Assembly: GCA_000091205.1 (NCBI GenBank)
Contig: AP006490.2
Strand: one strand, 5' to 3'
Origin: Cyanidioschyzon merolae
Taxonomy: Eukaryota
DNA length: 64,000 bases
The translations under genes and the position numbers were made by a program. Position 1 is the first letter of the stretch, and every line of letters begins with the position of its first letter. Below, in pieces: positions 1 to 40,115 of this stretch. Under the pieces are notes generated by a model. The model worked only from the letters and a program-made list of their open reading frames with translations. It did no database searches and had not been told where the DNA came from.

Positions 1-2712
1 GAGTAGGCGCTGAAGAACGTGTTCGACGGTTTCCTGGATGTATGCAAAAGATGCATGCACATATTTCCCCCAGAAAGGAAAGGTTTTCCAGCGCGTCGCC
101 GGGAAACCCGGACTCCCTATGCCCTGCAGTATACGCGTGATCTGCAGGGCGGTGCACGGAATGCGCGGTGGTGTGCATAGGTCCTGTTCCGCGTGCATTT
201 CCTGTCCACTTCGATATAGCGAATGCAGTAGGGCGCGAATGTCGGCCATCAAGAGTGCGTGGTCGTTGGCCAGACCGGTATGCGCAGACACTGGAGTACG
301 AGGCGATGAGATGGCAACGCAGGCAGGCGGCAGCTGCCCAGTGCGAAAGTAGTGATCCACCCATTCGCGAAAATGCGCTTCTATCTGGCTAGAACAAGCC
401 TCAGTTCGTCCAAGTTGCAGCACGGCGCGCGCTAGAAGTTCCATCTGTTCGAGACGTTCGAGGAACGCGCGCTGGTGCGCGAGGCGCTCCGCCACCAGCG
501 CATCCGTCCAGGCTCGGACTTGCGTGGCAAGCGGCGGCGGCGGCGGCTGACCAGAATGACATACCACGAGACATTCGCCAATTGTTTGCATCGTGATGAT
601 GCCTTGGTACTGTAGACGGCTGCAGCGGTCGAGCACCTCAAAGGGCGACATAGAGAGCGCCTGTGAGACAGCGTCGAGACGAACGTTACAGATGCTCGGG
701 TGGCGCAAGCGATGCGGAGCCTCGGCTGCGGAAAGGCGCACCAGCTCCTGGCAGAAGCTCCGAATATCCTCTGGCAAACAGGATACAGCTTGATGCAATG
801 TGATGCGTAGCGTTGTGGGCACGCGTTGGCGTGCTCTCCACGGCGCTGCGCCTACCGTGGAAAGCGCCTCCCCGGCAATGACAGTGAATCGAATGATGAG
901 TTGTTCCAGGATCGTTGCTGGAATGTCCAAGGTATTCTGTAGTGTAGCGAGGTCGAGGAGCGTAAAGCGCTCCGCAGCGCCTTCATTGCCAGGATGAGAG
1001 GATTCCGAGGTAACAACGACGCTCGCAACGAGACTGCGTACAAGTTTGCGAATCAGGGCCGGCTCTACCTGCTCGGCGAGAGCGAGCGCGCGCAAACGCT
1101 CTGTATCGGCTGCATCGTAGAACAGGTGACTGAAGGCGCTCGAGCGGTCTTTGCCAGCACAACTTGTCTGCTGCAAAAGGTCCTCGATGCTGTTCGGAAT
1201 GCTCCAGTGGACTGTGCAGCAAGCGGCGGGTGCGAGCGTTCGCAATGCGGACGAGCTGGTGGCAACAACCACGCGACAATGATGCTGGCGAAATGCTTCT
1301 TCAACTTTGCGGCGCTGTTCGGGGTTGAGTCCCGCGTGATAGCTGCGGGCGTCTATCAAGTGGTTTTGGAGCCAGGCTGCAAGTGCATCTGCATCGCGCT
1401 GTCGCGAAACGTAGATGAGCACAGGACCTGTCCACTGTTCGTCTTTGCTGAGCATTCGAACGAGCGTGCGGTATCGATCAACGGGTGTCGAAAAGCTAAA
1501 GTGCAGCTTCGAAGGCACCAAGTCGCTCTTTGGAGGTAGCGCCTCAACCAATGCTCCGGATACGACGGTGGCAAGGCAGGCTCGTACTGCTGGTGTTGGC
1601 GTTGCGGTCTGTGCGAGCAGGACGCATCCAGTATCGGCGGCGAGATGTTGTTTCAGCAGCGGTTGGATCTGCCAATAGGACGGCCTGAACATGGCGCTCC
1701 ACGGGAGCAGCAGGTGCGCTTCGTCAAGCACGACCGCGCTCGGATGCAGATGCTCAACAAACGACTGCACCTGGGGCTGGCAGAGGCGTTCCGGCGTGCA
1801 GAAGAGCACTTTGTACGCACCTATTTGCGTTGCCTCTAGAGACTGGAAGCCGCATGCGGTCTTGAAGCCATTGTTGGTGATCTCAGCGGCAGGCAACTGG
1901 GACGGCAAGTTTTCGAGTGCCTCGCGGATAAGTGATCGAAAGGGCTCGCACACCAGAACAGTTCCGCTGGTGAGCGCAGCGTAGAGCTCGTAAATCATGG
2001 ACCTACGGCTTCCAGGCCGTATACCCAAGAGTACGGACTCGCCGCGGAGCAGGTGTTGCAGAGCCTCGGACTGCTCGCTCCGCAGCTCGAGTCCAGGCAT
2101 GAGCTCTGGGACCGGACTCCGAAAATCGGAAGATTCAGAGACTTGATAGAGGGCTGGTGCGCGCTCGCACTGTCGCAGCATCGATATATCACATGAAGGC
2201 TGCGGGGCGGACTCGAGTAACCAGCTGGTTGCCGCTTGACACTGGAGTCGATGGACGTGTTCCCATAGAAAGAACGAGCAGCGAGGACGCTGCCCACAAA
2301 CGTAGTACGCTCGTTGGATCCGGCCGCCGTAGCCCCGCGAGACACGCCGTATGCACGGTTGGTTATGTTCGCGGCAAACCGGTGGATCCAATGGAACTTG
2401 TTGTCCATCGGGTTGCCAGGGACAATCGGCGACATCCTCCGCAGTGAGTGTGGCCCGTTCTGGATCCGCAAGCGAGTCATCAACGCATGTAGCTTGCCGA
2501 AGCGGGTGACTCCACCTGGAGCGGCCCGCCCACAAGCCAGTTCGATGCTCACCGCGACGACGTCGCTGTGCGAAACCGGCTCGAGCATCATTCGGTCGCG
2601 CCAAAGCTCGCTTTCTCTTCTTCTTCGTTTGGAATCGACCGAAAGTCGGGGGCGGTGCTGTCACTCGGACCGCTGGAGTGGTGACGACTTGAGGGCCCGG
2701 CGCCGGCTCCAT
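1..2712 (-). CDS. RecQ-family DNA helicase-like protein with N-terminal GRF-type zinc finger; partial (the gene continues past the 5' edge of the window); Walker A and arginine-finger motifs degenerate
   Basis: Manual translation of the minus strand from an ATG at 2710-2712 gives one open frame of more than 900 aa that leaves the window at position 1, which is why it is missing from the ORF track. A GRF zinc-finger-like block is present: 'PVCREHNQPCIRRVSRGYGGRIQRAYYVCGQRPRCSFFLWEHV'. RecQ helicase motifs are recognisable: motif 0/I region 'FRSPVPELMPGLELRSEQSEALQHLLRGESVLLGIRPGSRRSMIYEL' (RecQ consensus ...MPTGGGKSLCYQ), motif Ia 'TVLVCEPFRSLIRE', DEAH box 'AVVLDEAHLLLPWSAMFRPSYWQI', then 'LLAQTATPTP', 'YHAGL' and 'VVVATSSSALRTL...TVHWSIPNSIEDLLQQTSCAGKD'. 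The Walker A lysine is replaced by arginine and the glycines are lost (PGSRRS versus GGGKS). Motif VI reads SCAGKD versus GRAGRDG. Confidence 0.6.
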   Translation of the reverse strand, partial: MEPAPGPQVVTTPAVRVTAPPPTFGRFQTKKKRKRALARPNDARAGFAQRRRRGEHRTGLWAGRSRWSHPLRQATCVDDSLADPERATLTAEDVADCPWQPDGQQVPLDPPVCREHNQPCIRRVSRGYGGRIQRAYYVCGQRPRCSFFLWEHVHRLQCQAATSWLLESAPQPSCDISMLRQCERAPALYQVSESSDFRSPVPELMPGLELRSEQSEALQHLLRGESVLLGIRPGSRRSMIYELYAALTSGTVLVCEPFRSLIREALENLPSQLPAAEITNNGFKTACGFQSLEATQIGAYKVLFCTPERLCQPQVQSFVEHLHPSAVVLDEAHLLLPWSAMFRPSYWQIQPLLKQHLAADTGCVLLAQTATPTPAVRACLATVVSGALVEALPPKSDLVPSKLHFSFSTPVDRYRTLVRMLSKDEQWTGPVLIYVSRQRDADALAAWLQNHLIDARSYHAGLNPEQRRKVEEAFRQHHCRVVVATSSSALRTLAPAACCTVHWSIPNSIEDLLQQTSCAGKDRSSAFSHLFYDAADTERLRALALAEQVEPALIRKLVRSLVASVVVTSESSHPGNEGAAERFTLLDLATLQNTLDIPATILEQLIIRFTVIAGEALSTVGAAPWRARQRVPTTLRITLHQAVSCLPEDIRSFCQELVRLSAAEAPHRLRHPSICNVRLDAVSQALSMSPFEVLDRCSRLQYQGIITMQTIGECLVVCHSGQPPPPPLATQVRAWTDALVAERLAHQRAFLERLEQMELLARAVLQLGRTEACSSQIEAHFREWVDHYFRTGQLPPACVAISSPRTPVSAHTGLANDHALLMADIRALLHSLYRSGQEMHAEQDLCTPPRIPCTALQITRILQGIGSPGFPATRWKTFPFWGKYVHASFAYIQETVEHVLQRLL

Positions 2713-3710
2713 GCGCGATCAGGTGCGAGGAGCCAGGCTCTATTGCTGGAAGTGGCGCTCGTGCGTTGTCAGCACGCCCTCGATCTGGAAATGCGATTTC
2801 GAAAGTGTGTCCGAAGCCTTTTGCACTTGCCAAGCTCGTGGACGAACGAAGGTCAACAGGAGGAGAGAATCCCCAGTCTCTGTGTTCTGACGGATCAGAG
2901 CGGACACGTTCCACTATTCTCTTGACTCTGGATTGATACAGTGGCCTCGAGCAAATCCTGTTTTCAAGGCCACTCAGCGCCGCATGCGGCAGTCTGGCAC
3001 AGAGCAGCCAAACGGGCACGCGTCGCCGTCACCGCAGCAGTAACGGGAACTTTGGTCACGAGTTTCCCCCGGAGACTGGAAACAGCCTCGAACCCGTGTT
3101 TGTTTGGTGAGCGGTAAGCACCAGAGAAATAAGACGCGCGCAGCAGTCCGCCCCGTGTCCGTAGCTGCTCTGTTTGACGCGCGTCACAGGGACTCGGAGC
3201 GCTCTACCGACCACAGCTAGCGACCAACGAGCAGCGAGGCTCCTCGCTGGCCGCAGCGAACAGTTGCCTAAAGCGATGCGTTATCGGTGCGTGCAGGCGC
3301 CGAGATGAAGAGCGCTCCAGCCCCAACGAAGTCACGCGCGGAACCAACAGGCCGTGTAAAGAAGTCGCTCAACACACACACACACGTTCTTGGTCTACGA
3401 CGGCCAGTTTCTTGCCCTATTGATTCCTTAAGCGTTCTCCAGGCGTTTCCCGATAACCCAAGACTAGTGGCAAACTATACACTACTGGGCCCGAAACCGA
3501 GTTCGAGAGTCATGCAACCGTCTGACCGAATCGCGAGCTTCGGCAACGCCGGGTGTCGCGAAGACTTGTGGACAAAGCGGGGGATGTGCTGATTCCTAAT
3601 TGAGGGTGTTTTTGGCGCCAATTTTCATGAGGCGCCTTGGGAGCGCTCCCGAGATGTGCGCTCCTTCTTTCGGATTGCATCTTTCCTGCTCTACAAGACG
3701 TTTCCATGGA

Positions 3711-4865: not shown

Positions 4866-5950
4866 ATATACTCAGTAGTATCGAAGCATGGAACACCGCA
4901 ATGTTTGACCATTTGCCCAGAAAAATCGTTGTCTATGGAGGTGTGTATGGCGCTCCAGCCTTGATGCGTTGCAGACCCGTACCACACCAGTGCGTTTTCC
5001 TCCTCGCTACTGATTGTTTTCATCGAAAGTGTGCGGCTTTTCAGCGCAATGTCTACGGTGACTAGAAAGCGATTCCGTCGGATATTCGCGGCGTGCGAAG
5101 CCGCCGGACGCTGCGGCAGCAAGAGACATTTCCCGATCTCGGACGAGTCGCTCAAGTCTCTATTCGGAACTCGCCTGCAAGCGCTGGTGCTGGTGGAGTC
5201 ATGCCCTAGCAAGCCTCTGAGTTTCGATTGCCTCGCCATCTGGCGTGCAGTCAACTTGCCCTACACCGTCTCGTGTGTCCGGGTGTGTTTCACGCTCTGC
5301 GACTCTGCTAGGCTCACGGAGCGCTCTTGCTTGTGATGCGTTGATCTAGTGCGGGACGCATCGACGGGCGTCGTGCAGCATCGATTGCTGAACGCGTTGT
5401 ACGCTGGCGTCGAATGAGCGGGAGTGCACCCTCTGGGAGCTGCGGTGCGTCGATTGCCGCAGACTACCACGAGACGAGGCGACGCATCGGTCATGACCTG
5501 GTCCAGTGGCTCGAGCGAGCAGGCGAAAGCACGTGTCGTGCATCCGTACAACCGAGACGATTGGCAATGCCGTCGCTGCCTCATGTACGCCAGCCAGGGA
5601 TTGTCAATGGCAGCTATATCGACTCTCTTGTGATCTCTGCGTGAAAGACGCATACGAAGCGTTCCAGCGTGTTTGCTACGGTGCTTCGAGCATCAGGATA
5701 GGTTCTGAGGCTGTCACTACGTTTCATCGTATGCCTGCTTGCAACCATCATACCCGAATGCGGATCACACCGAGCGGTGGAAAATTCTGAACAGCATCCT
5801 TTGCTTTCCGTACAAGTGTTTGGCGGCGGCTTATTGATTTAAGGGTTCAGCGACGGTCATGATGTTCTTAAACCTGGGATACACGCGCAGCACCAAAGCT
5901 CTTTCAGCATCTACCATCATCGGTTGAAAATGAGTCCCGATGCTGGGCTC
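4866..5950 (+). repeat. R1: ~1.08-kb direct repeat, near-identical to 13998-15080
   Basis: The ORF track shows near-identical peptide sets in both copies, for example 4775..5065 versus 13937..14197, 4862..5254 versus 13958..14386 and 5506..5790 versus 14638..14922. The nucleotide alignment is collinear from 'atatactcagtagtatcgaagcatgg' to 'catcatcggttgaaaatga' with only scattered substitutions, about 98% identity. No gag/pol-like coding content was found. Confidence 0.85.
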
Positions 5951-7110: not shown

Positions 7111-7505
7111 AGGTCGTTCGTCTTCCTGGTGCATGTGGAATGTCTGACTGACTGACTTGTACAAATAAGACCGCTTTCTTTGTAGACGAGCAATGACCAC
7201 AGCATGCCGCTCCTCGACCCGTCTCCAGTTCCCATTACACAATTCTGATTTTGAATACCTGCGAGGAAAACAAAGAAAAATTAAAAGTACTTATTGGTAA
7301 AGGTGCGCAACAACGCACTGCCCAAGAGATAACGTCGCGCAACGGCCAACGGACTGGACTTGGGTTCCTCAAACAACCTGACCTTGGATACGGGGAGCCG
7401 ACTCGGCGTTTCGCGAGCCTGACGCCCGGTCCCAGCCGTGCGGTAGCGAACGTGTGTTCCGGGGGAGGCCCCTGTTCGCCGTGGGTGTCGTCGTCGACGG
7501 ACACC

Positions 7506-9149
7506 ATGCCGTCGGTGGACACCAGCTCGGACGCTGACGGAAAGTCAACGCCTATTCAGGTCGCACGTGGCCTTTATAACTTTCTGCGAGTGGTTGGCGG
7601 GACGAATTACGAGCGGTCGGCGCTGGTAACAGATTTAAGTATTGGACTTGCGCTTCTGATCCAACGCAAAGAACGGGAACGAGAGCAAGAGCGAGAATCG
7701 TGGTTGGCAAGTCTCGAGAGAGAGCAAGTGCAGCTCGAGGCAGCGGAACTCAAGCGACTGCACCACTTTGCCCGACTAGCGCACGGTGCCTACAGCGCCA
7801 ACGACGAGGAGCTCTTCAAGCATACACCGGTGTACGCGAAGACGCTCTTGAAAGCGCGGTGGTCCAGCAGTCAAGAAGAGCCAGCCTATTACATTGCAAT
7901 CGACGAAGCCTTCCGTTCGATCGTGCTAGCTATCCGCGGAACCGATACGTTCTCTGATGTCTTCACGGATTTGAGTTTACATCCAACGCCGTTCCTGGGG
8001 GGCACTGCGCACGCTGGAATGACCCGTGCTGCTCTGCGACTCTACGATGAGGTCAGGGAAATGTTGCGGACAGCGCGCACAAACTATCCAGAGTACGACC
8101 TGGTTTTTACGGGGCATTCGCTAGGTGGAGGCGTTGCCTCTATCCTCACGATGAAACTCTTATGGGAAGACGATCCGCTGCTCCGCCTCTTCGAACAGCA
8201 CAACCGACCGAAGCTTCTTGCATATTCATACGGAACGCCTGCCTGTGTATCCCTCGAACTGGCGAGGAAAATTCAGGGGAGTCCTCCCGACCTGCGAGAC
8301 GCATTGACCACCGTGGTGCTCGGAGACGATCTCGTTCCACGGGCATCCGCCGCGAGTATGGATCGTATCGTGCGGGAGCTTGCTGCATTTAACTGGCGAG
8401 AACAGATCGCGAACGAGTTTAGCGAATATGTGAATACGAGCAGCCTTGCGCGCTGGTCACAGCATGTTATCCGTTGGTCTATCCCGCGGGACCAGGTGCA
8501 GCGCTTTGTCACTGAGATCGGGCAACGGCTGAGCAAAGCATCCTCGTCGATCAAAGGTGCGCGCCTCGGAAATACGTTTGGCCTTGTAGCAGCGGTAGCC
8601 GGCAGTGCCTCTGGCTGGATGAACTGGTATGGGAACCTTTTCCAGAAAGAGCAGCCGCAGGAGCGAGAAGCAGTGAATAGGGCTGAACCTCGACTTGCCG
8701 AACCGGTAGCGCTTCCGCAGTTCTACCCGCCAGGCGGTTGCATCTGGCACCTCCATGAGGTGTCACTGCGAGCGGGGGATCAGCGAGGGCTCCCTGAAGG
8801 CGCCGCCTCAGAACATGGAAGGGTGCGCCAACAGCTCGTCCAAGACATCTCGAATATTAGTCGTGAGGTATGGAACGAATTGCCGACGCTCAAGCAGCCC
8901 AACGAGTCTCCCGAGGCTCCCGGCAACGACTGGGATCGCTCCAATGCGCCCGAGGATGCTGCTGAGAGCATTGGTGCGGAGCCTCAGCGTCTACTGCTTC
9001 TCCGAACATCACCAGACGCTTTTCATGACATCGTGCTCAGCCGTCGCTGCTTCAATGATCATCTCATGCGCAATATTCGGCGCGCACTGGCAAGACTCTA
9101 TGAACAGCAGTACAGGCAGCCACGGCTCGGCGAGCATGGATCCAGTTAA
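7506..9149 (+). CDS. Class-3 (fungal-type) lipase / sn1-specific diacylglycerol lipase-like alpha/beta hydrolase
   Basis: ORF 7251..9149 has a TTG start; the first in-frame ATG is at 7506. The nucleophile elbow 'FTGHSLGGGVASIL' (GHSLGG) and an 'AIRGTDTFSDVFTDL' Lipase_3-like block are present. The region downstream of the catalytic Ser carries a conserved Asp. Confidence 0.7.
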   Translation: MPSVDTSSDADGKSTPIQVARGLYNFLRVVGGTNYERSALVTDLSIGLALLIQRKEREREQERESWLASLEREQVQLEAAELKRLHHFARLAHGAYSANDEELFKHTPVYAKTLLKARWSSSQEEPAYYIAIDEAFRSIVLAIRGTDTFSDVFTDLSLHPTPFLGGTAHAGMTRAALRLYDEVREMLRTARTNYPEYDLVFTGHSLGGGVASILTMKLLWEDDPLLRLFEQHNRPKLLAYSYGTPACVSLELARKIQGSPPDLRDALTTVVLGDDLVPRASAASMDRIVRELAAFNWREQIANEFSEYVNTSSLARWSQHVIRWSIPRDQVQRFVTEIGQRLSKASSSIKGARLGNTFGLVAAVAGSASGWMNWYGNLFQKEQPQEREAVNRAEPRLAEPVALPQFYPPGGCIWHLHEVSLRAGDQRGLPEGAASEHGRVRQQLVQDISNISREVWNELPTLKQPNESPEAPGNDWDRSNAPEDAAESIGAEPQRLLLLRTSPDAFHDIVLSRRCFNDHLMRNIRRALARLYEQQYRQPRLGEHGSS

Positions 9150-9737
9150 AACGAGGGTCTGTGCAGAGCCGCATCGCGACGCGGAAAAAACTGTATTCTA
9201 AGAGAATTGGCACCTGGAAAGGTGCGGTGTCAACGTATGAACCGGATGAGCAGAGTTCCCGTGGCGCCAAGGGTGCTCGGGTTCAAGTCAGGATCAGCGT
9301 GGATATCGTCTGTTTTCTGGATGGAAACTCTGGATTCGGTCTCGCAGAACATCGATGCATCCGCGGCGGAAGAGAGGCATCGTTGCTGGTCACCGGCAGC
9401 AGTCCTGGGTCCGCGGCAGTCTGGTGCGAGCCGTTTGATCCTGCAGCATAAAAATCGAAGCAGATATAGCTGCGCGCTGTGAAAGGTCTTTCCGCATAGG
9501 CAACGGGTTCGAGTCCACGCGAGGAAACGCAAGCGCTGACATCGTCCAGCGGCAACGCCCTCAAAGCACGTCTTGACAAAACGGCTCGCAAAATGGCCCA
9601 CTTTATTCGGCGGACGATCGCTGCGACACAGCTCCGCACGCTTCCGCATGCAACTCCAAAGGCGCTGCACAGTTCCAGCTCTTCAAACGCAAAGCCGCTG
9701 GATGCCTTTCATTTGACCCGCACGGGCGGTCGAACAA

Positions 9738-10709
9738 CTACGGACATGCCTCAGCGAAGAGCTGCATCTCAAACTGCATCGCCGGTGCATACGCTATTTC
9801 ATTCAACTGCTGAACCAAACGCTCTAACGTTTCAGAGGTCGCACTGCACCATTGCTCCGCGTACAAGTCAAGGAGAAGCTCAAAGCTTTCCGCCAATTCT
9901 TGAAATTTTGGGCTGGAATACGTGGCCACCCATGTTGCGCGGGCGCTCTTCCTAGGGTCATGGTCATCTGCGGCCTGTATATGGACCGACAGCTTTCTCC
10001 CAATGAACGCATAGAGCGACATGCACGGTACCATAGCGGCTACGAGCAGCAAGCGTGCTCGTCGCCAGGATGCTTCCACTGGAGCGATTCCGCCTTGCTC
10101 CTCATGGAATGCACCACTAGCGTGTATGAGCTCCTCTAAAAGTCCACGACTGTGACGCATGAGGAGTCGAAGATATCCCTGGCAGACTTTATGCAGTGCA
10201 GGGGCGCTGTTCTGCCTATTTGTCGACGAGACTGAGCGCGTCGCAGTCGCAGTCGGAGCCGCAGCCGCAGCCACCAGCTGCTGTGCCCCGTGTTTGGCGG
10301 CGACCTGTTCTTGGGCAGAAACGCTTCCACGCTCGGCGGCTATGGCGTGGCTTAACTCGGCGAGCACCTGGTGCTCCCAGCCTGTTTCGGCGGTGAAGCA
10401 GAGCAGACCCAGGCACCGCCAGTAGCCTGCTAGGAACTCAGTGTCAACGGAGAGGAAGCTAGCCAAGTTCGATTCCGATAAAGTACCTTGGGCCAATTCG
10501 CGAAGCCACGACGTCTGGAGTGCTTGCTCGATTACCGCAGAGTTTGACTGCCACAAAAGCTCGCTAGCGCAGGTCATAAAAAGCCTCTGGAATAGCAGGC
10601 AGCGAGGCGCGTTTCTTCCGGTTCGAGACGCTCCGACAAGGCCTTTCGAGAGCAAGAGAGGTTTAGACGGTTTTTGCTCGTGCGACGTGACGTTAGATAC
10701 ACGTTGCAT
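9738..10709 (-). CDS. TenA/THI-4 family (thiaminase II / heme-oxygenase-like fold) protein with ~60-aa N-terminal extension
   Basis: ORF 9738..10724 has a GTG start; the first ATG is at 10709. 'LAQGTLSESNLASFLSVDTEFLAGYWRCLG' matches the TenA 'L..G.L....F..Y..QD..FL..Y.R' block. The C-terminal 'VPCMSLYAFIGRKL' matches the TenA 'PC..Y..IG' motif. Confidence 0.5.
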   Translation of the reverse strand: MQRVSNVTSHEQKPSKPLLLSKGLVGASRTGRNAPRCLLFQRLFMTCASELLWQSNSAVIEQALQTSWLRELAQGTLSESNLASFLSVDTEFLAGYWRCLGLLCFTAETGWEHQVLAELSHAIAAERGSVSAQEQVAAKHGAQQLVAAAAAPTATATRSVSSTNRQNSAPALHKVCQGYLRLLMRHSRGLLEELIHASGAFHEEQGGIAPVEASWRRARLLLVAAMVPCMSLYAFIGRKLSVHIQAADDHDPRKSARATWVATYSSPKFQELAESFELLLDLYAEQWCSATSETLERLVQQLNEIAYAPAMQFEMQLFAEACP

Positions 10710-11185
10710 GCAAGCTGTGGTCACCGTTCACGCCGACTGAATACCGCAACCCCATGCTTCAGTTGCGCTTCCCCGGTTCAAGTGTTAAGGTCGATAGGCC
10801 GTGGAGTGGTTGCGTTTTTATTGGCTCGGAATCTCCGCTGCAAGCAAGCTATTCAACTATTTGGCGCTGCGTCTGGTGTTTTTCTTGAAATGCCCAGTCT
10901 CGTACTCTACCCGTATGAGAATAAAACGGAACTGGTCCAGTAAGCAGAGTTGGGCATACGCTCGAGATTTTGAATGTGTGCCCGGCATGTTCAAAACAAG
11001 TCCATGCGGGATATTCTCTGACTGCATTCGTTACCCCGCTCGTCTCACAAGCTGTGCATACGTCGGTCTCTCATGTGCTTCCAGCTCCGTCGTCGTTATT
11101 GGAGTAAATCTGATGGCAGCGTTTTAGTTCGGACGTCGCTGCATCCGACTGTAGTCTATGCATTACACGCGCCAGCGGGCGTTGC

Positions 11186-11545
11186 GATCCACGCCTCATT
11201 TGCCATGCTCAGCTTCTTTATAGACAGTCCCGATGCAGTCGCCAAAGCGGTGACACTTGATTATGGTTAGCTGCGCTCACATGCTCACCATACAAGCCGT
11301 CTCTCAGCGAGCGGCCTCTGTGGCGCCTGAACGCTTACTCCATCACGCGGTAGATGTCGGTTTCTGGGTCAGAAGGCCCGCCTCGATGCTCGAATCTGTT
11401 TTTCGCTGCCAATGGCTTGCCCTCCGTCACGGGCTTCTTCGTTGCGATCCACTCGGCGAGTACTCTGTCCGTTGCACGCTCGTACACACACTGTCCTACT
11501 CGATAGAGGATTTCCAGGACATGGTGCTGTCGATGATGAAATAAG
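11186..11545 (+). repeat. Y-family repeat, 5'-truncated or diverged copy (Y3)
   Basis: Shares the left-end block 'tcatttgcca..cagcttc.tta.ag...gcggtgacacttg' with 20716-20790 and 58690-58750. It also shares the internal block encoding '...YSVRCTLVHTLSYSIEDFQDMVLSMMK', compare 'DYAVRCTWGHTLIRSTEDLWNAMLSIMK' in Y1. Confidence 0.55.
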
Positions 11546-12498
11546 TATCGAGTGGAAAATCCAGACTGGAGAACAAGTAGAGAAATCCTGATGCGTGTGC
11601 GCTCCCTTCGTGCAACGCAATGGTGCACGCTGCACTAGAAGCAATTGCTTCGACGAATTGAACCAAAGTCCAAGGCCTTTTCCCATGCAAGCTGAAGAGA
11701 CGGGAGCTTCTGCTTGCGTGTCGCGTGCCAGGCACCATGTTGCTGTCGAATGCCGTTTCCTAGAAAGTTCCAGTGAGAGAGAGGGGCGTGTTGGTATTTC
11801 CCACGGAATCGATTCCTCTAGTTGATAGCTTCAGCATACTTGTGGGATGCGCTTATGGACAAGTCGTCAAGGAATTACATCAAGTTTTGTTGCTCGTCGT
11901 ACCAGCAGCACGAATCGCCGCGCCGTCGACTTGCCCCGACACAGCAACATCAAAAACTTGAAGAATATGCGATTTGAGCGTCCCATACCCAAGGAAACGA
12001 GAAACGTGGAGGCTTGTACATATTCGTTGGACCACGATATCGACTACAATATGAATACTGGTTCGAGGGCATCCCCAATTATCTTGATTTCGGTGGCGTC
12101 TTCAATGCCATCAGCAGCGCCTCTAAGCAGCCACACCGAGAACACGACCGAGACTCCCGGAACGACGTATGAATCCGTAAGCCCATGGTGCTGCACTTTG
12201 ATGTCGAGCATCTATATTTTGAACAAGATCGAAAAAGTTTGAAATGATGGAACAGAACGAACAAGACAGTACCCTAAATTTACCGTACACGGATGTGCAA
12301 CACTCCTGCACCATGCGTGTGACGCCACGCAACGCCACGCGTGGCTACGCTACCCGCGACGCGCCAGCGAGGTTGCACGTGCTGTTGCAGCGGGCGCTTG
12401 CGTTGAGCGCGTTTCCCTCTTTTTCTTCAGCCGTTACTCTGCAAGTTTCTGTTCCGTGAACGTTTCCTTTTGAATCATTGGGCACTCTTGCGTTCGCC

Positions 12499-13998
12499 AT
12501 GGACGGATTGTGGGCACGGAAGGACGGCGGAAACGGTCTTGTGGACGAGCAGGGACTCCGTGCACCACTCTCGGGTGGACTCGGTTGGGAGTCCAGGATG
12601 CGTTCCCGCTGGAATGACTGGCTGCGCAAGCTCGACGTTTACCCCAAGACTGTCGAGGACGTGCGCTTACGTTCTGTGACAGGAGGCATCATCGCTTTAT
12701 TTTCGTACATTTGCATCGGTATTCTGGTCGTTTCAGAGTTTCTGCGGTGGTTGCAGCCCCAGCTCCACTCTAACGTGCTCGTGGACGCGCGCTCGATTCT
12801 CGATACCGAGCCAATCACGGTAGATCTGGGCATAGATCTCCTCGCTGTCGGTTGTGACGAGTTTAGCCTTGACGCGCTCACTGCGAACGGCGCGCAGCTC
12901 CCCAACAGTGTTGTGGAGCTGCGTAAACGCCCATTGGATGCGAGCGGTCAACCTGTGATATTTCCCCGAGGTGCATTCGGACGCAGTCGTCTGCGGAACG
13001 AGCGAGGTGGCGTAGCGCCAGCACCTCAGGCGCTAACGGAAGACCCGCCAAACACACAGCAACTCGAAGGGCGAGTATCCCAGGAAGTACGCGCGCAACT
13101 GAAACAGTATCGCGAAGAGGCGATAGCTTTCCGTGATCGCCTTGCAGCGTTGAACAAGACCGGTGTTGCGTATTGTGGCTCCTGTTATGGTGCTGTGCCT
13201 CAAACAGATCAAGTCGGGGAGGCGAATCAAATAACGTCCGGAGTATGCTGCAACACCTGTGATGAAATTCGCGTCCTGTACGAGGAACGGAACTGGGCAT
13301 TCGATCAAGTGCTTCGAACGGCGGAGCAGTGTGCTGAAAAACGCTACTTGACGCTGCTTCACGAAGCCGGTCGTGTTCAGTCTGGTGGCTGTCGAGTGTC
13401 CGCACGTTTACAGCTACCACGGGTGGCGGGCAACTTTCACTTTGCTCCGGGCAAGGGCCATACGCACCGTATGGGCCATCATGTTCATTCGGTAGATGAT
13501 CAGTTGCTCCACCGCACCTATAATTTCTCGCACCGTATTCGGCATTTGCGGTTTGGTCCGCTGTTCCCGCACCAGCAGAATCCACTTGACGGCGCGATGC
13601 GGATTCTGGAGCAACCGCCGCCGGGGTCACCTTTTGGCAACATGGTGCTGTATTATTGCAAGCTTATACCGACAACATACCGTCGAGACCGCCAGCGCGG
13701 CGACGCACTTCGATCGATGGAGTACGCAGCCGCAGACCTGACACAATCATCGGAACAGGATCGGGTGGGAATCACGCATAGTACGGGTGCATTGCCAGGA
13801 ATATTCTTTTTTTACGAACCTCAGCCTTTGCAAATCGCGTACTTTGAAGGTCGGATGTACGGTTTGCTGCATTTCATCGTCCAGCTATGTGCCATTGTTG
13901 GAGGCGTTTTTACCGTAAGCAGTATGATCGATCGTTTTGTATTTGGGGCGGGAACCTTCATTCGGGCGCAGAAGCGCCGGCTCGGCAAGCTTGGGTAA
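12499..13998 (+). CDS. ERGIC3 / Erv46-like ER-Golgi vesicle transporter (ERGIC_N plus COPII-coated ERV domains)
   Basis: 'LRKLDVYPKTVEDVRLRSVTGGIIALFSYICIGILVVSEF' is the ERGIC_N and TM1 region. 'CGSCYGAVPQ...CCNTCDEIRVLYEERNWAF' is the Erv46 cysteine-loop signature. The C-terminal TM and tail 'IDRFVFGAGTFIRAQKRRLGKLG*' resemble the human ERGIC3 tail 'IDSLIYHSARAIQKKIDLGKTT'. ORF start 12478 is TTG; the first ATG is 12499. The stop codon at 13996-13998 overlaps the first base of repeat R2. Confidence 0.7.
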   Translation: MDGLWARKDGGNGLVDEQGLRAPLSGGLGWESRMRSRWNDWLRKLDVYPKTVEDVRLRSVTGGIIALFSYICIGILVVSEFLRWLQPQLHSNVLVDARSILDTEPITVDLGIDLLAVGCDEFSLDALTANGAQLPNSVVELRKRPLDASGQPVIFPRGAFGRSRLRNERGGVAPAPQALTEDPPNTQQLEGRVSQEVRAQLKQYREEAIAFRDRLAALNKTGVAYCGSCYGAVPQTDQVGEANQITSGVCCNTCDEIRVLYEERNWAFDQVLRTAEQCAEKRYLTLLHEAGRVQSGGCRVSARLQLPRVAGNFHFAPGKGHTHRMGHHVHSVDDQLLHRTYNFSHRIRHLRFGPLFPHQQNPLDGAMRILEQPPPGSPFGNMVLYYCKLIPTTYRRDRQRGDALRSMEYAAADLTQSSEQDRVGITHSTGALPGIFFFYEPQPLQIAYFEGRMYGLLHFIVQLCAIVGGVFTVSSMIDRFVFGAGTFIRAQKRRLGKLG

Positions 13999-15080
13999 TA
14001 TACTCAGTAGTATCGAAGCATGGAACACCGCAATGTTTGACCATTTGCCCAGAAAAATCGTTGTCTATGGAGGTGTGTATGGCGCTCCAGCCTTGATGCG
14101 TTGCAGACCCGTACCACACCAGTGCGTTTTCCTCCTCGCTACTGATTGTTTTCATCGAAAGTGTGCGGCTTTTCAGCGCAATGTCTACGGTGACTAGAAA
14201 GCGATTCCGTCGGATATTCGCGGCGTGCAAAGCCGCCGGACGCTGCGGCAGCAAGAGACATTTCCCGATCTCGGACGAGTCGCTCAAGTCTCTATTCGGA
14301 ACTCGCCTGCAAGCGCTGGTGCTGGTGGAATTATGCCCTAGCAAGCCTCTGACTTTCGCTTGCCTCGCCATCTGGCGTGCAGTCAACTTGCCCTACACCG
14401 TCTCTTGTGTCCGGGTGTGTTTCACGCTCTGCGACTCTGCTAGGCTCACGGAGCGCTCTTGCTTGTGATGCGTTGATCTAGTGCGGGACGCATCGACGGG
14501 CGTCGTGCAGCATCGATTGCTGAACGCGTTGTACGCTGACGTCGAATGAGCGGGAGTGCACCCTCTGGGAGCTGCGGTGCGTCGATTGCCGCAGACTACC
14601 ACGAGACGAGGCGACGCATCGGTCATGACCTGGTCCAGTGGCTCGAGCGAGCAGGCGAAAGCACGTGTCGTGCATCCGTACAACCGAGACGATTGGCAAT
14701 GCCGTCGCTGCCTCATGTACGCCAGCCAGGGATTGTCAATGGCAGCTATATCGACTGTCTTGTGATCTCTGCGTGAAAGACGCATACGAAGCGTTCCAGC
14801 GTGTTTGCTACGGTGCTTCGAGCATCAGGATAGGTTCTGAGGCTGTCACTACATTTCATCGTATGCCTGCTTGCAACCATCATACCCGAATGCGGATCAC
14901 ACCGAGCGGTGGAAAATTCTGAACAGCATCCTTTGCTTTCCGTACAAGTGTTTGGCGGCGGCTTATTGATTTAAGGGTTCAGCGACGGTCATGATGTTCT
15001 TAAACCTGGGATACACGCGCACCACCAAAGCTCTTTCAGCATCTACCATCATCGGTTGAAAATGAATCCGGATGTTCGAT
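13998..15080 (+). repeat. R2: ~1.08-kb direct repeat, near-identical to 4866-5950
   Basis: See R1. Identity decays after about 15070, where 'aatgaatccggatgttcgattt' stands against 'aatgagtcccgatgctgggctc' in R1. Confidence 0.85.
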
Positions 15081-16024
15081 TTGGTACTTTTTCGCACCTG
15101 TGCGGTCGATGCTCCTCGCGACGAGGCAACGCGGCGACGCTTTGCGGCATTCGGGGAAGCGTGTCTGCAATTCTGTGAACCTAGGATCCGGCCGTGTCAC
15201 ATCTTCTGTCATGAGTATCGGATGTGATGTCCCGTGGAGGTATCATCGCAGAATTTCAGACGACTACGGACAACTGGCACCTTTTGCGCCTACAACTCCT
15301 GCGAATAATTGCTTGACGAGGTGCGTCGAAACGAGGTGCGCTAGGCAAGCCCTGAACGAGTAGCAAGCCACGTGATCTCCAGTGGCGTCCAGAATGTTTC
15401 CCGTTCGCGAACCAGAACCGCATTTCTATGGATCGATCAGCGTCGAATGGCGATCGATAACAAAGAGAACGCCTTTCACGGCGCCGAACCTGGAGCATAG
15501 GTTGGTACGAAATGCAGCGCAACGCTGATTTCACGTACGAACTCGCTGAGCGTTTTTGCGTGATGCACAGTGACCTTTTCAAAGGGCAGGAGAGAAGCGT
15601 ATGTGAGATTGAAGGCATAAAAAGTGCTTTGACGAGGCAGGAGCTGTTGAATGCTGGCGCCTATTCGGCGATTTGTCGCCCATAAAACCATGCCATCGAC
15701 GCTGGTGCTGTTGTTGCCGGTACGCCCCCTTGTCTCTGTTTTATGATGTGCGGTTCGCCGCTCTTCGCATGCCCATATACATGTCTACCAGCTCCCGCGA
15801 ATAAAACCCCATCGAGTGAGACGAGCACCCGTACCTTCGATAACCATAAGCATTTGTTATCCGTTCCGCAAGCGACAATGTGCAGGTCAACGCGGAACGG
15901 TGCCCTACCGAACCGCATCTCTGCTGTTGTCCGTCCGTGTCTCTTCATAGGTGTTGATTTCAATTGTATTGAAACTTCATTTGCTGGGGCTCCTCTCGTC
16001 GTTTTGCTTTCAGAATACATGGAT

Positions 16025-16110
16025 GCGCATGGTTAGACGAGGACAGAATCGTATAGACCTAGTTTGTACATTTTCGTTTCGGGTGCATATTGTTCAGGAT
16101 ACGAACCACG
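16025..16110 (+). repeat. Short conserved motif pair shared with 7020-7110
   Basis: See 7020-7110. Confidence 0.4.
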
Positions 16111-16289
16111 AGAAGCGTGGTTCATCCACCTTCTCACCATACAATGACTGCGTTGTGAGTATGCGCTGGTAGAGCCCGCGTTGCAGCTCGGGACCCCTGT
16201 GCTGAAGCGCAATTCCCTTTTCAGCAGGCGCTGCATACGGTCAGTATAAAAAGTCCCATGACTGTGGAGGATATGTTAATACACCCACT

Positions 16290-17410
16290 AGCAGACGACT
16301 CCCAGTCTTTTTTCACCAGCCGTCTGGTATCGGTTTCAGTTTCTCCCTGCACACTTCGACCCTGCGATGGTGCTTCACAAAAATCTCTCGCCTCAGCTCC
16401 GCATACCGTCTGATACGAATGGCGGCGTTGAGGTCTCGGTGCTCGAACCTCTTGCATGCGTCGACGCTGGTTGAACTCACTATTGCAAGGATTCCTGGAA
16501 TTCGCGCCCGATGTACCACTACAGCGTCGTCACCCTCCCGTCGGGAAAGCACCTTTTCTCTCTTATCTCCCGTCTTTCTCCTCTTCATCATCACTTGCTC
16601 CTCTCCGCTCGGTTACCGGTGAGAGCAGATTTCTTTTCGTTCTTTTTCGGCAGCCGGCGGCACTTGCCCCGCCCGGATCCTCGACTTGCATTTCCTTGCC
16701 AGTTCTTTCGATATTTTATTTCTTGAAATAAACGCGTTTCTTTACGCCCTTACGAGAAGACCTTCCCAGGGAGAGAGGGATCTGTGGATCAAAGGCGAAA
16801 TATGCCCCTGGTTTGTCTCCGTGGTCTGAGCGCTTCAACGATTCGCACAGCGGGGCGTTCATTACGTTTCGGGATGCAAAACGCTCCATCGATGGGGTCG
16901 GACAACGCAACGTACCCAGGAATGAAAAGCAGCTCGACGTCTATAGAATCGGGGAAACAGCGAACGCAAGGGTAATGGTGAGATACCACGTTGTCCACTG
17001 GAGGGACGTCATCAGACGCCAGAGCAAAGTCCTCAATGGTTCGGCAATGTGGTTGTTGCTGTTGGACGAACCCTCTCTACGAGCGACACTGAGGCGGCCA
17101 AATGAACCCACTACTGCCAGAACAGATGCTAAGGTCGTTGTTCTCTTCGAGCTCGATTGTATATACAACGAGCTCTCCGCTCCGCCAATGCCCATATACG
17201 TTCCCAACGGTTCGTCCGAAGCAACTCTCATCGGCTGGAAAAGCAAACCGACGTTCCTGCGCCTCATAGAGATTGTGACGTCCCTTGAATCCTTGTCGTT
17301 GCGATTTCGGTGGAAGATGGCCGTGCGTGAACAAGCACTGTTTTGTGCCAGTATCCTAGTGTTTAGCGGACCACCCGAGCAAGCAGTCGAATTCCAGAGA
17401 CCCGTGTGAT
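16290..17410 (+). repeat. A/B repeat family, copy A: two small ORFs (93 aa on the minus strand, ~195 aa on the plus strand) with a conserved spacer; unknown element or paralogous gene pair
   Basis: ORF 16813..17409 (TTG start) is about 45% identical at protein level to ORF 54620..55183 (minus strand). Compare 'MSPWSERFNDSHSGAFITFRDAKRSIDGV' with 'MAPYAGRFSDSARKAIITFHDTKCSLDGV', 'VVVLFELDCIYNE' with 'ILVLFDFDRIYNG', and 'SLSLRFRWKMAVRE' with 'ALSLQFRWKVAVNE'. Upstream spacer 16620-16740 matches 53815-53920 ('ttcgttctttttcggcagccggcg..ac.tgccc'). The minus-strand ORF 16313..16594 has a degenerate, stop-containing homolog around 53560-53760. Confidence 0.45.
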
Positions 17411-18682
17411 GGCTGTCATCGTCGCTTTTGCTTTCCGAAAAGTGATCAATGGGTCGTTTTCTAGCATTTGCCGCAAGCACTCTTTGAGAATACCGGTTTC
17501 TGGTGCGGATCGCATATATTTGTTTCTTTCAGTGTTCCTCAACCATCAGACGACTATGGTGTGACTAACCTGAAGGAGGAATGCAGCCATCCTTGCACTG
17601 TTCAGTAAAGATTCTATCCTACGGGCAACACGTCCACGCTCTGTACGGTACATTCCACTGGCATTTCGACCTCCTACTATACACCACTGCTGGTGTGGTA
17701 CAAAACTGAGTTCAAAGACCATAAGCGCCACAGTACAATGAGGCAACGCGAGGGATCGGGAACTGCGTTCCCGGCGCGTGGATCATTATTCTAAGTTCGC
17801 TTACGTTTCGAATGGCTGACGAGTATGGACGCTCTCGTAAACACTTTGGTCATTTCGGATACTCCGCAAGCAATCAAGGGAGAGCTCTATCGATGTTGTC
17901 CAACTTTTACGGTAACGAGTAACACCCCGATCAGGATGACGCTTCACTTGCTAGCGGTTGCAAATGGGTCCACGACGTCGCTACCAGAGCGGACCTCAAT
18001 GATTTTCTGGCTCGCCGGCGCGCCAGAAACGTTGGAACAACGTATGCTCAGTAATGCACCGCCGCGCATGCGTATTCTTGCTGGTAGGTGCTTCAGGCAT
18101 GGCGGTTCCGATCATGTTCGCCCGAGCTGTGACGCAAGCGCGTGCTCCTGATGCGGTAAATCTTCGGTCCATGAATCTATCCGGGATCAACAGATGTGTC
18201 GTGAAACGCTCTTCGGTAGCGAGGCCGGACCCAGCGAAGCATGCCGAGCGCCCAGGACGCTCTACTTGTCCAGACCAGTGCGGCCGCTGTTCCGCGGTTT
18301 GGATGTGAGAGCCCGGCCGGATCTTCCCCGCACAGCAGACAATCCATTCAGATCCACAGACGGTTTCGTGTAAGCACCGTGCGACGCGTGGAGCAGGCGA
18401 AAGCTCCCATCGACACCGATTCGTGGGTTGATCGTTGCGACGACGGCTCGTTTTTCAGAACGTCTGCTTGAGCGATCAGGCGAGAAGTGTCAGGGTCGGT
18501 GAGACGTGGTCTCGATCACGCTGAGGTCCCATACGCAGCGCATAGCATCTATTCCTGAATCCATCATCACATTACGGGGCATCGTCGCAGAGCTATAGGC
18601 ACCACGGTTCCGAGTTCAACACACATCTCTAAGCGTGCATAACAGGATCAATCCCAACAATACAGCGCACCTCTGCCAACTT

Positions 18683-19777
18683 CTAAGCTCCAGGGTTCAC
18701 GGAACTCGCGGCATTTGCGCGATCACCGCTGGGACGTGCCCATTCGACGGAGAGAATTAAGTGATCGTAACCGAAACCATTCAGTTTGGCGATGCAACGT
18801 TCCGCTGCTGAGCGTTCCGCGAACGCTGCGAACGCGAAACCCTTCGGCGCGCCGGTGTACTTATCGCGTGCCAGATAGATGCGCACAACTCGCCCAAATG
18901 GCTCAAGCAGCTGCCGCAAGTCATCTTCTGTGGCACCCTCCGTCAAGTTACTGATGCGGATGGAGTTTTCCTCGCGACGTCCATAGAGGGAATCTCCCTC
19001 ACGCAATCGCGCCGATGCTCCTGACCGCATCGATGGCGGCACATATCGAGTTGCACCGCTGCTCGTGGCACTCGCCGCCATGCTGCCGCCCGACCCTGCG
19101 CTGGGAGCCCCAACTGCCCCAGTCGCGCCGAGTATGCCATCTGGAGCTGTTGAGGCGGCGCTACCAGGAAGACCGAGTCCATCGGCGGCCCCTTGTAAGC
19201 CCTTATAGGGGCAACGAAGTGTCCAGTGATCACCAACGCGCCCACATATACGGCAAACTACAATAGACTTGTTGGTCATGAGGTCTTCGCCACTACCGCT
19301 TCCGCCGCCGCCGCCGCCGCTCGCCGAAGACGGTGCCGCACCCAAACTTGGCACCGCCTCGCCACTTTCCTCGTCATCGCTGACCTCGGTGTTACGCGTG
19401 TTCCACTCGATGGGAATGTCTTCGTTTGCCTGTGTGGTGGTGTTTGCGTTCTCGGTAGCGGCGACCCCAAACTTGCGCCAGCAGCGCCGCCGCTCTGCAA
19501 CTGCAGCGCACACCCGCCGTCGCTCAAGACGACGACGAACGCGCCGAGTCCGCTGAACAACGTATCCTTCGTCGTTGACGTAGTAATCCACGATCGTAAC
19601 AATGCCGTCTGCGTCGGGTTCGCTCACTCGTGGCGGTGGTAGGCCACCGCCGCCCTTATCGAGTTGCGTGGTAAGCGCGCGCCCCAGGGACGCGACCGCA
19701 TCGGGAGAGTCGTTTTCGGTCTCATCCCAAGCGTCCTCTGACGTCGTTGGCTCAACAGTTGCAACGCGTAAGCTCAT
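18683..19777 (-). CDS. Eukaryotic translation initiation factor 3 subunit G (eIF3g / TIF35-like): zinc knuckle plus C-terminal RRM
   Basis: ATG start at 19775-19777. 'CRICGRVGDHWTLRCPYK' is the eIF3g CCHC-type knuckle. The C-terminal RRM carries RNP-2 'IRISNL' and RNP-1 'KGFAFAAF'. A Gly/Ser-rich linker lies between them. Confidence 0.75.
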   Translation of the reverse strand: MSLRVATVEPTTSEDAWDETENDSPDAVASLGRALTTQLDKGGGGLPPPRVSEPDADGIVTIVDYYVNDEGYVVQRTRRVRRRLERRRVCAAVAERRRCWRKFGVAATENANTTTQANEDIPIEWNTRNTEVSDDEESGEAVPSLGAAPSSASGGGGGGSGSGEDLMTNKSIVVCRICGRVGDHWTLRCPYKGLQGAADGLGLPGSAASTAPDGILGATGAVGAPSAGSGGSMAASATSSGATRYVPPSMRSGASARLREGDSLYGRREENSIRISNLTEGATEDDLRQLLEPFGRVVRIYLARDKYTGAPKGFAFAAFAERSAAERCIAKLNGFGYDHLILSVEWARPSGDRANAASSVNPGA

Positions 19778-21800: not shown

Positions 21801-22283
21801 GACATAGATATATCGTCCCAGGCGCCGAGCACTACGAGAGCGATGCAATCGAAGGCTGCTCACGGGCACGCGATCCATCGTATCCCTCAGATTTCGACTC
21901 GATGCAAGGCATCTCAGCGTGAACAACAGCGCCCGTGCCTCGGGGGCGCTGTTTCCGATCGGCGTGATGCGCACCACGATTTTGGGAGCGCCGCCCCAAA
22001 AGAAGTTGCAAACGCCGCCACCAACATCGGGATTGGGGCGAGCGCCGTCGCAGGAACACCACAAATGCGCCTCTGCGCGCATTTCACCATCATCTAGATC
22101 GCCAGATTTGGATGCTTTACTAAACCGGAGATCAGAGCATAGACACCGAAGCGCAGTGGACATGATCGTAATAAATAAATCTGCATTGTCGCTTTCCGCA
22201 GAGAAAACGAACAAGCTTCTCAGCGTCACCACGCGGTCTTCATTGCGCAAACGAACGTAACGAGCCTCGTGTATAAAGTAGAA

Positions 22284-22955: not shown

Positions 22956-23217
22956 AGGAGCTTTGCGATGGACGTGGTGGCTGGTCATCTCTATGTGAGC
23001 GGACAGAGGACAGAGTCCGCGGAGTGACGTGGGAGTGCTAATGGACAGTATATCTGATGGAAGTGTACAAGGACGTTCATTGTAGTGCCTTGAACAATTA
23101 TAAATTCTGAATTTCGTCATCATTTCAAAGCGCCCTTGTCTGAGTTGCCATCTGCTGCCCTGGCCCGTGGATTGTCGCATCGCTTTCATGGCGCGTCTGC
23201 TTCTCTGTGACGTCAGA

Positions 23218-37622: not shown

Positions 37623-40115
<2,493 letters not shown>

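Follow-up and report, generated by a model that had tools for sequence, protein, structure and literature searches.

A RecQ4 orthologue with degenerate ATPase motifs in Cyanidioschyzon merolae, probably maintained by selection as a pseudo-helicase

At one end of a 64,000-nucleotide stretch of the Cyanidioschyzon merolae genome (contig AP006490.2 of assembly GCA_000091205.1; the whole stretch is referred to below as the window) lies a RecQ-type helicase gene in which several catalytic motifs are degenerate. This raises the question of whether the substitutions are sequence errors, the marks of a decaying gene or of a divergent paralogue, compatible with an unorthodox active enzyme, or the signature of a protein that is retained for something other than catalysis. 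A preliminary description, made from the sequence alone, proposed a catalytically dead pseudo-helicase that keeps DNA-binding modules, and named a lineage-specific divergent RecQ paralogue as the alternative. The present analysis supports the former proposal. The gene is the C. merolae orthologue of RecQ4 (RECQL4), and it probably encodes a pseudo-helicase that is maintained by selection, in this lineage alone, as judged from the positions of the degenerate residues, their uniqueness among RecQ-family sequences, the intact motifs of the orthologues and evidence of purifying selection.

The gene is an uninterrupted open reading frame (ORF) of 904 codons, running from position 2712 on the minus strand to position 1, where its translation exits the window (Table 1). 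From the base composition, the chance of 904 stop-free codons was estimated at about 1e-14. As an in-frame TGA lies 3 codons 5' of the ATG at 2712-2710, this ATG is the earliest start possible. The gene is absent from the program-made ORF list, as had been remarked before, since ORFs running off an end are omitted there. The window translation is identical (904/904) to residues 1-904 of the 921-residue protein BAM79823.1 of C. merolae 10D (P0091 in our set; also XP_005536109.1 and UniProt M1VGK9), which carries the database name 'probable ATP-dependent DNA helicase RecQ'. The window thus lacks only the final 17 codons and the stop codon, and the complete gene is present on metagenome contig L001. 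The antisense ORFs listed inside the gene, such as those at 994-1539 and 2314-2925 on the plus strand, were taken as chance ORFs, the opposite strand being a gene of strong homology in GC-rich DNA.

The helicase core and its motifs

The RecQ fold assigned in the preliminary description was borne out by Pfam, with the DEAD domain (45.5 bits) and the Helicase_C domain (37.8 bits) both above threshold; the corresponding scores of the orthologues are 75-80 and 70 bits. A phmmer search against all PDB chains matched Escherichia coli RecQ (1e-31), human RECQL4 (5LST, 9e-29) and BLM (about 1e-28). In the alignments to E. coli RecQ (1OYW), Cronobacter sakazakii RecQ (4TMU) and 5LST, GSRRS falls on GGGKS or GAGKS and SCAGKDR on GRAGRDG. 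As the motifs are located here by alignment to solved structures, the degenerate residues sit at the true motif positions, and not outside them.

Against E. coli RecQ and RECQL4, the lysine of Walker A (motif I) is replaced by arginine (K237R) and the second arginine of motif VI by lysine (R521K). The former replacement had been described correctly, together with a loss of the glycines that proved to be overstated: G236 has become arginine, but one glycine, G234, remains. The described loss of the motif VI arginine finger stands, with the first arginine of the motif changed to cysteine (R518C) in addition to the change of the second, accompanied by G517S and G523R. Two further degenerate elements are additions to the earlier account. 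Motif V reads ATSSSALRTLAP where ATVAFGMGIHKP is expected (SSSALRTLAPA in place of AFGMGI.KPD), and the aromatic-rich loop, which in the orthologues reads HCL(V/L)EWGH.FRPAY, is partly degenerate, with C334L and the loss of the glycine and the histidine, W338, F342, R343 and Y346 being retained. The first RecA-like domain keeps Gln214 of motif 0, motif III (TAT, residues 369-371, nucleotides 1600-1608) and the DEAH box (residues 330-333, nucleotides 1714-1725, within VVLDEAH at 327-333), the last of which had rightly been called intact.

These losses are peculiar to this protein. In an hmmalign alignment of 227 RecQ-family sequences, 226 have a residue at the Walker A lysine column, and this residue is lysine in 225, the C. 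merolae protein being the sole exception. All other aligned sequences that extend over motif VI have both of its arginines, and all others that extend over motif V have a recognisable A-F/L-G-x-G. A smaller alignment of nine sequences comprised the C. merolae protein, its orthologues, bird RecQ4, bacterial RecQs and BLM-like proteins. Of the 61 columns in which the eight other RecQs agree throughout, 24 differ in C. merolae; when each of the others is left out in turn, the corresponding figure is 0-6 of about 40. The core is nevertheless modelled by AlphaFold with a predicted local distance difference test (pLDDT) score mostly above 90, within a model built on 37 relatives that has a mean pLDDT of 80 and a predicted template modelling (pTM) score of 0.78.

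Errors of sequencing or assembly could in principle produce such residues, and resequencing that restored the motifs would have been decisive. The 10D reference shares its degenerate residues with six metagenome contigs, taken from as many separate Joint Genome Institute (JGI) samples; these contigs represent five further distinct haplotypes and show ordinary single-nucleotide variation around these residues, and none of the independent assemblies restores a motif. The error explanation is refuted by these assemblies and has practically no probability left.

Lys-to-Arg is a standard ATPase-dead substitution of Walker A in P-loop NTPases. With the lysine, the adjacent glycine, the motif V loop and both motif VI arginines lost, ATP hydrolysis and its coupling to translocation should be abolished, and most likely the protein cannot hydrolyse ATP or unwind DNA. 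An active but non-canonical helicase or ATPase would require that Arg237 take the place of the Walker A lysine and that other residues compensate for the motif VI arginines. The intact motif 0, DEAH box and motif III would be in keeping with this, as would the four retained residues of the aromatic-rich loop and a core that is 50-67% identical to the orthologues and folds confidently. However, the Lys-to-Arg change does not stand by itself, being joined by the losses just listed; no other of the 226 RecQ-family sequences tolerates a change of this lysine; and the clustering of changes in catalytic motifs, within a core whose evolution is accelerated (see below), points to relaxed constraint. 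Retained activity of this kind is therefore considered unlikely.

RecQ4 membership, orthology and the GRF finger

The protein belongs to the RecQ4 subfamily, and is neither a generic RecQ nor of BLM type. The top Foldseek match was the human RecQL4 structure 5LST, with 672 aligned columns that include the region following the core (TM-score 0.66, target-normalised; E=1.5e-24), whereas other RecQ structures superpose well over about 365 core columns only. A Pfam scan of the protein found no RecQ_Zn_bind (PF16124), RQC (PF09382) or HRDC (PF00570) domain, all of which occur in the bacterial and BLM-type matches; the absence of RQC and HRDC follows from membership in the RecQ4/RECQL4 family. The extreme C-terminus, ITRILQGIGSPGFPATRWKTFPFWGKY (GIGSP..FWGKY), matches residues 1245-1280 of bird RecQ4 in a pairwise BLASTP comparison (39% identity, E=8e-4), and the consensus ARILHG..SP.FPA..W.....WG recurs at this motif across the 37 relatives, with W881 invariant. 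In a profile search of 1.84 billion representative proteins, the cyanidiophyte matches were followed by proteins of 900-1500 residues with a GRF finger and a helicase, several of which align with the profile over a stretch that starts at the basic motif or the GRF finger and takes in the helicase, and others as far as the C-terminus; the few relatives with source names bear the JGI label 'ATP-dependent DNA helicase Q4'. Since motifs I, V and VI are not intact, the protein would be a RecQ4 member by descent and fold and not as an enzyme.

In a collection of 5.8 billion clusters, this subfamily is represented by three clusters, one per lineage. The first is that of C. merolae, with 55 members at 90% identity or more. 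The others are those of P0002, a cyanidiophyte protein from a JGI metagenome, and of P0003/P0098, which is KAK4532671.1 of Cyanidiococcus yangmingshanensis. P0002 and P0098 are about 46% identical to the C. merolae protein and 65% identical to each other; the representative library adds one more full-length relative, P0099. The neighbourhood of the gene is conserved on both sides, with a convergent proteasome subunit gene and then an M17 peptidase gene at the 3' end and, at the 5' end, lipase, TENA-like, ERGIC and eIF3g genes arranged as they are at 7251-19777 of the window. The C. merolae gene is thus the positional orthologue, and not a paralogue, of genes that are intact in the sister cyanidiophytes. 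Both orthologues keep PPGSGKS or PPASGKS at Walker A, HCL.EWGH.FRPAY, ATVAFGMGIHKPD and QQTGRAGRDG. Conservation of the substitutions among orthologues, which had been proposed as a check, was accordingly not found. As syntenic orthologues at about 46% identity keep every motif, the loss is confined to the lineage of C. merolae.

The gene order covers this locus alone, which leaves room for an additional copy in the rest of the genome, and hence for the explanation that the gene is a lineage-specific divergent paralogue with a separate intact RecQ4 elsewhere. This alternative, which the preliminary description had offered, does not agree with a gene order that is shared on both sides with the intact genes of Cyanidiococcus and the other cyanidiophyte, nor with the single cluster per lineage and the one added relative, and is very improbable. 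As a separate observation at the 3' end, the called ends of the RecQ4 gene and the convergent proteasome gene share 38 nt in each of the three cyanidiophyte lineages, in prokaryotic-style gene calls (4898-4935 of L001, and also in L002-L005), just past window position 1.

Ahead of the helicase, the GRF-type zinc finger noted in the preliminary description is present, although its Pfam score is below threshold. Pfam Zn_ribbon_GRF (PF06839) scores 22.2 bits at residues 111-151, just under the gathering cut-off of 25.9 bits, and relatives score 44-52 bits at the aligned position. The sequence, PPVCREHNQPC...YYVCGQRPRCSFFLWE (residues 110-151), has intact CHCC ligands (C113, H116, C139 and C145), followed by FFLW at 147-150, and carries the signatures R134-A-Y-Y-V-C139 and C145-S-F-F-L-W150. 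It is matched by phmmer to the APE2 Zf-GRF structure 5U6Z (E=1.3e-4, residues 107-151), and AlphaFold models it as a three-stranded module (strands 121-126, 132-138 and 148-150) with pLDDT 81-86. The zinc ligands are nearly invariant across the 37 relatives. A polymorphism inside the finger, I132M, creates an internal ATG, at which gene callers started on many metagenome contigs; cluster members of 789-791 residues (e.g. P0080) were considered as truncated genes and rejected, as they start at this Met132.

The 37 relatives were picked mainly since a regular expression flagged a GRF-like pattern in them, and Pfam detects GRF upstream of the helicase, at the same position, in 33/37 of this selected set, Drc1-Sld2 in 5/37 and SAP in 6/37. 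GRF plus helicase is therefore a common architecture among the non-animal RecQ4 relatives examined, and is not peculiar to this gene; the finger is probably ancestral to the non-animal family. Drc1-Sld2, GRF and SAP domains are combined ahead of the helicase in P0124, P0163 and P0208, the order in P0124 being Sld2-GRF-SAP-helicase. A conserved basic motif, KKKRKRALARPNDARAGFAQRRRRGE (residues 30-55, nucleotides 2548-2625), lies within the N-terminal region predicted to be disordered. This motif does not vary among the cyanidiophyte orthologues, and a subgroup of GRF-RecQ4 relatives has it in the form ..IARP+DAMPGY..; many relatives have a basic motif of the NFVRLNL+K type ahead of the finger, where the cyanidiophytes and one subgroup have ..IARP+DA.PGY... 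A literature search found, within the searchable library, no paper mentioning RecQ4 with GRF, and nothing on this C. merolae protein or on GRF-type RecQ4.

Table 1. Coordinates of the RecQ4-family gene and its parts in the window
Feature	Residues	Window position	Strand	Basis
RecQ4-family coding sequence	1-904 of 921	1..2712	minus	Translation and match to BAM79823.1
N-terminal region, predicted disordered	1-105	2398..2712	minus	pLDDT <50
GRF-type zinc finger	111-151	2260..2382	minus	Pfam, PDB 5U6Z match, ligands, model
RecA-like domain 1	205-400	1513..2100	minus	Pfam DEAD 213-374
Degenerate Walker A (motif I), GIRPGSRRS, with G236R and K237R	230-238	1999..2025	minus	Aligned to PTGGGKS (E. coli RecQ) and PTGAGKS (RECQL4)
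Partly degenerate aromatic-rich loop, HLLLPWSAMFRPSY	333-346	1675..1716	minus	Invariant-column comparison
RecA-like domain 2	401-545	1078..1512	minus	Pfam Helicase_C 414-515
Degenerate motif V and next strand, ATSSSALRTLAPAACCT replacing ATVAFGMGIHKPDIRGV	484-500	1213..1263	minus	Orthologue and family alignment
Degenerate motif VI, QQTSCAGKDR	514-523	1144..1173	minus	Aligned to QETGRAGRDG
Post-core alpha/beta region, the RecQ4-specific domain of human RecQL4	546-850	163..1077	minus	Foldseek, pLDDT mostly >85
RecQ4-family C-terminal signature, ITRILQGIGSPGFPATRWKTFPFWGKYVHASFAYI	857-891	40..144	minus	BLASTP, family consensus

Substitution rates, polymorphism and the surrounding window

Relative-rate comparisons of the core against bird RecQ4, bacterial RecQs and BLM-like proteins as outgroups gave 38-51 changes unique to C. 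merolae against 7-19 unique to an orthologue (p from 1e-2 to 4e-8), and the two orthologues did not differ from each other in rate. A Tajima test was made for the orthologues P0002 and P0098 with the full-length P0099 (33-38% identity) as outgroup. In the second RecA-like domain (residues 401-545), changes unique to C. merolae outnumbered those unique to the orthologue by 28 to 6 (P0002, p=2e-4) and 27 to 4 (P0098, p=3e-5), whereas in all non-core regions together the counts were 56 and 38 (p=0.08) and 53 and 44 (p=0.42). The acceleration is confined to the helicase core and is strongest in this second domain, while the N-terminus, the GRF finger and the C-terminus evolve at the pace of the orthologues. 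The blocks best conserved relative to the orthologues are the GRF finger (66-68% identity), the second RecA-like domain (65-67%) and the C-terminal motif (60-62%). The ratio of nonsynonymous divergence (dN) between C. merolae and an orthologue to that between the orthologues reaches about 3 in the core, compared with 1.7 for the rest of the protein. The proportion of differing nonsynonymous sites (pN) relative to the orthologues, 0.36, is far under the corresponding synonymous proportion (pS), which is saturated at 0.74-0.77.

Within C. merolae, the window and the six metagenome contigs provide seven sequences and six distinct haplotypes. The frame of 920 or 921 codons is intact in all seven, the only indel being one in-frame CCG codon in a poly-Pro run. 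Of the segregating sites, 12 are synonymous and 11 nonsynonymous, which corresponds to a pN/pS ratio of 0.305 (one-sided binomial test against neutrality, p=0.0046). Three of the 11 nonsynonymous variants (A497G, C498W and N507S) lie in or beside the former motif V, which, as a post hoc observation, fits local relaxation. The length of the poly-Pro run at residues 721-725 varies between strains, from 4 to 6 prolines.

These data bear on a further explanation, that of a unitary pseudogene whose decay is too recent to have interrupted the frame. The loss of many catalytic residues would be expected of such a gene, as would a density of substitutions between the window and L001 that is much the same inside the gene (16 per 2712 bp) as in the intergenic DNA upstream of it (13 per 2174 bp); a pN/pS of 0.31 is not notably low, and the three variants in the former motif V agree with it as well. 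However, no sequence carries a stop or a frameshift and the sole indel is in frame, nonsynonymous variants are under-represented, and at least 24 changes at core positions that are otherwise invariant place the relaxation far back in time, with the frame still unbroken. Further, the non-core regions are no faster than in the intact orthologues, and pN remains far below the saturated pS. Early decay is thus improbable. As catalytic constraint appears to have been relaxed for long, yet the frame, the fold and the non-catalytic modules are under selection, a pseudo-enzyme is favoured over a decaying gene.

Genes lie in both orientations in the window, which has long single-exon ORFs and a GC content of 50-62%. 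The other ORFs are typical eukaryotic genes, encoding among others a photolyase, a cyclin, Prp8, eIF3g, an ERGIC/ERV protein and a gyrase B of organelle type, and scans of the window for tRNAs and Rfam families gave no matches. In the intergenic region 5' of the RecQ4 gene, a (GT)n microsatellite at about 3374-3387 varies in length, the window and L001 being set apart by a 2-bp indel. A 1077-bp direct repeat, intergenic and 98.9% identical between copies, lies at 4866-5942 and 13998-15074, and L001 stops exactly at the start of the first copy, a typical assembly break at a dispersed repeat. Self-BLAST also revealed an 889-bp inverted repeat of 98.4% identity (20915-21803 and 23212-24099), flanking an interval of about 1.4 kb that overlaps the ORFs at 22269-22955 on the plus strand and 22326-23441 on the minus strand. 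The 1174-codon ORF at 30679-34203 on the plus strand had no Pfam match at E<=0.001. The nuclear gene at 37650-40115 on the plus strand encodes a DNA gyrase B of bacterial type (Pfam HATPase_c, DNA_gyraseB, Toprim and DNA_gyraseB_C), which is presumably organelle-targeted, as expected in a plastid-bearing alga. Prp8 is encoded at 40318-47514 on the minus strand as a single ORF of 2398 codons with rather weak Pfam scores (RRM_4 52 bits, PRO8NT 79 bits), which fits the reduced and divergent spliceosome reported for C. merolae.

A RecQ4 without intact ATPase motifs and its possible role

If the protein is a pseudo-helicase, its role in replication or repair could be ATP-independent, as a factor that binds DNA, anneals strands or serves as a scaffold. 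Single-stranded DNA would be engaged by the basic N-terminus and the GRF finger, and the two-lobed core, although dead, would form, together with the C-terminal domains, a structural or interaction platform, the core possibly still gripping DNA. The cellular context would have had to accommodate such a RecQ4, and the annotation of the protein in databases as an ATP-dependent helicase is probably wrong about catalysis.

Parallels for the separate parts are available. The Zf-GRF of APE2 (5U6Z) is a single-stranded DNA-binding module and the same CHCC GRF zinc ribbon, joined there to a nuclease and in C. merolae to what appears to be a dead helicase. The C-terminal cassette of Brr2 is an inactive fold of helicase superfamily 2 (SF2) that serves as a regulatory or interaction platform; it differs in belonging to another helicase family and in being an internal duplication beside an active cassette. 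Non-animal GRF-RecQ4 proteins such as P0124 and Cyanidiococcus KAK4532671.1 have the GRF finger, the helicase core and the C-terminal motif in this same order, but keep GxGKS, AFGxG and GRxGR, and some carry the Sld2 and SAP domains that are absent from the C. merolae protein.

The animal proteins are similar in overall plan. In human and other animal RECQL4 (5LST), as in C. merolae, an SF2 core is followed by the RecQ4-specific domain, with no RecQ-Ct, RQC or HRDC, and the C-terminus carries GIGSP..FW.KY. Upstream of the helicase, animal RecQ4 has a basic region and a CCHC zinc knuckle that binds single-stranded DNA and RNA (PMC4757822), so that in both cases a basic region and a zinc module of a nucleic-acid-binding type precede the core. 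The C. merolae protein differs in having a GRF finger and not a CCHC knuckle, in the lack of a detectable Sld2 domain and in its degenerate motifs I, V and VI; more generally, the GRF finger of non-animal RecQ4 proteins sits where animals have the zinc knuckle.

The closest experimental parallel is in the mouse. Animals with a Recql4 K525A knock-in lack ATP-dependent helicase activity and yet are normal, but truncations without the helicase and C-terminal domains are pathogenic and have effects as severe as those of null alleles (PMC6636780). K525A likewise yields a RecQ4 without the Walker A lysine, and the contrast with the truncations parallels the retention of the entire 921-residue frame in C. 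merolae. The mouse allele is an engineered single substitution, whereas the C. merolae loss is natural, fixed in the species and spread over several motifs (24 core positions), and it appears to have persisted under selection.

Several points weigh against the interpretation of the gene as a selectively maintained pseudo-helicase, or against parts of it. The loss of activity is read from sequence. Walker A variants with arginine for lysine can still bind nucleotide which, with Gln214, the DEAH box and motif III kept, could allow a nucleotide-binding but non-hydrolysing role. The population sample is small, its 23 segregating sites giving modest power, and the neighbouring genes have too little polymorphism to calibrate pN/pS (1 synonymous and 7 nonsynonymous sites in the proteasome subunit, 2 and 1 in a 231-residue ORF, 6 and 3 in the M17 peptidase). 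Because synonymous sites are saturated (pS 0.74-0.80), dN/dS on the long branch is unusable, and the comparisons there are of dN. Pfam Drc1-Sld2, the Sld2-homology domain, had no match in the C. merolae protein or in the cyanidiophyte orthologues, and with no detectable Sld2 homology a role in replication initiation like that of animal RecQ4 is not directly supported. Finally, the catalytically dead K318A protein of Saccharomyces cerevisiae Hrq1 is reported to be dominant-negative through DNA binding (PMC13586618), so a dead RecQ4-family protein that binds DNA would not automatically be harmless. Hrq1 K318A, an inactive RecQ4-family member whose DNA binding still has consequences in the cell, would resemble the C. 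merolae protein in its lack of catalysis, and differs in being a deleterious laboratory allele with another domain layout, where the C. merolae state is natural and apparently selected.

C. merolae is haploid, and gene targeting by homologous recombination is routine in it. It is possible, and is suggested here only tentatively, that C. merolae has no catalytically competent RecQ4 at all, and that selection keeps an ATP-independent function of the GRF finger, N-terminus, dead core and C-terminus, which may be, for example, the binding of single-stranded DNA or forks, strand annealing, or scaffolding at replication origins.

The purpose of the helicase activity of RecQ4 is unsettled. A natural loss of the ATPase motifs would independently support a main job that is ATP-independent. 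As the parts of importance, it points to the basic N-terminus and GRF finger ahead of the core and to the post-core domain and C-terminal motif behind it. Although from a single lineage, a naturally helicase-dead RecQ4 would corroborate, from evolution, that the ATPase of RecQ4 is dispensable. Should C. merolae indeed manage without any catalytically competent RecQ4, its gene would be a natural, fixed counterpart of the helicase-dead mouse allele, and would argue for a conserved core role of RecQ4 across eukaryotes that is non-catalytic.

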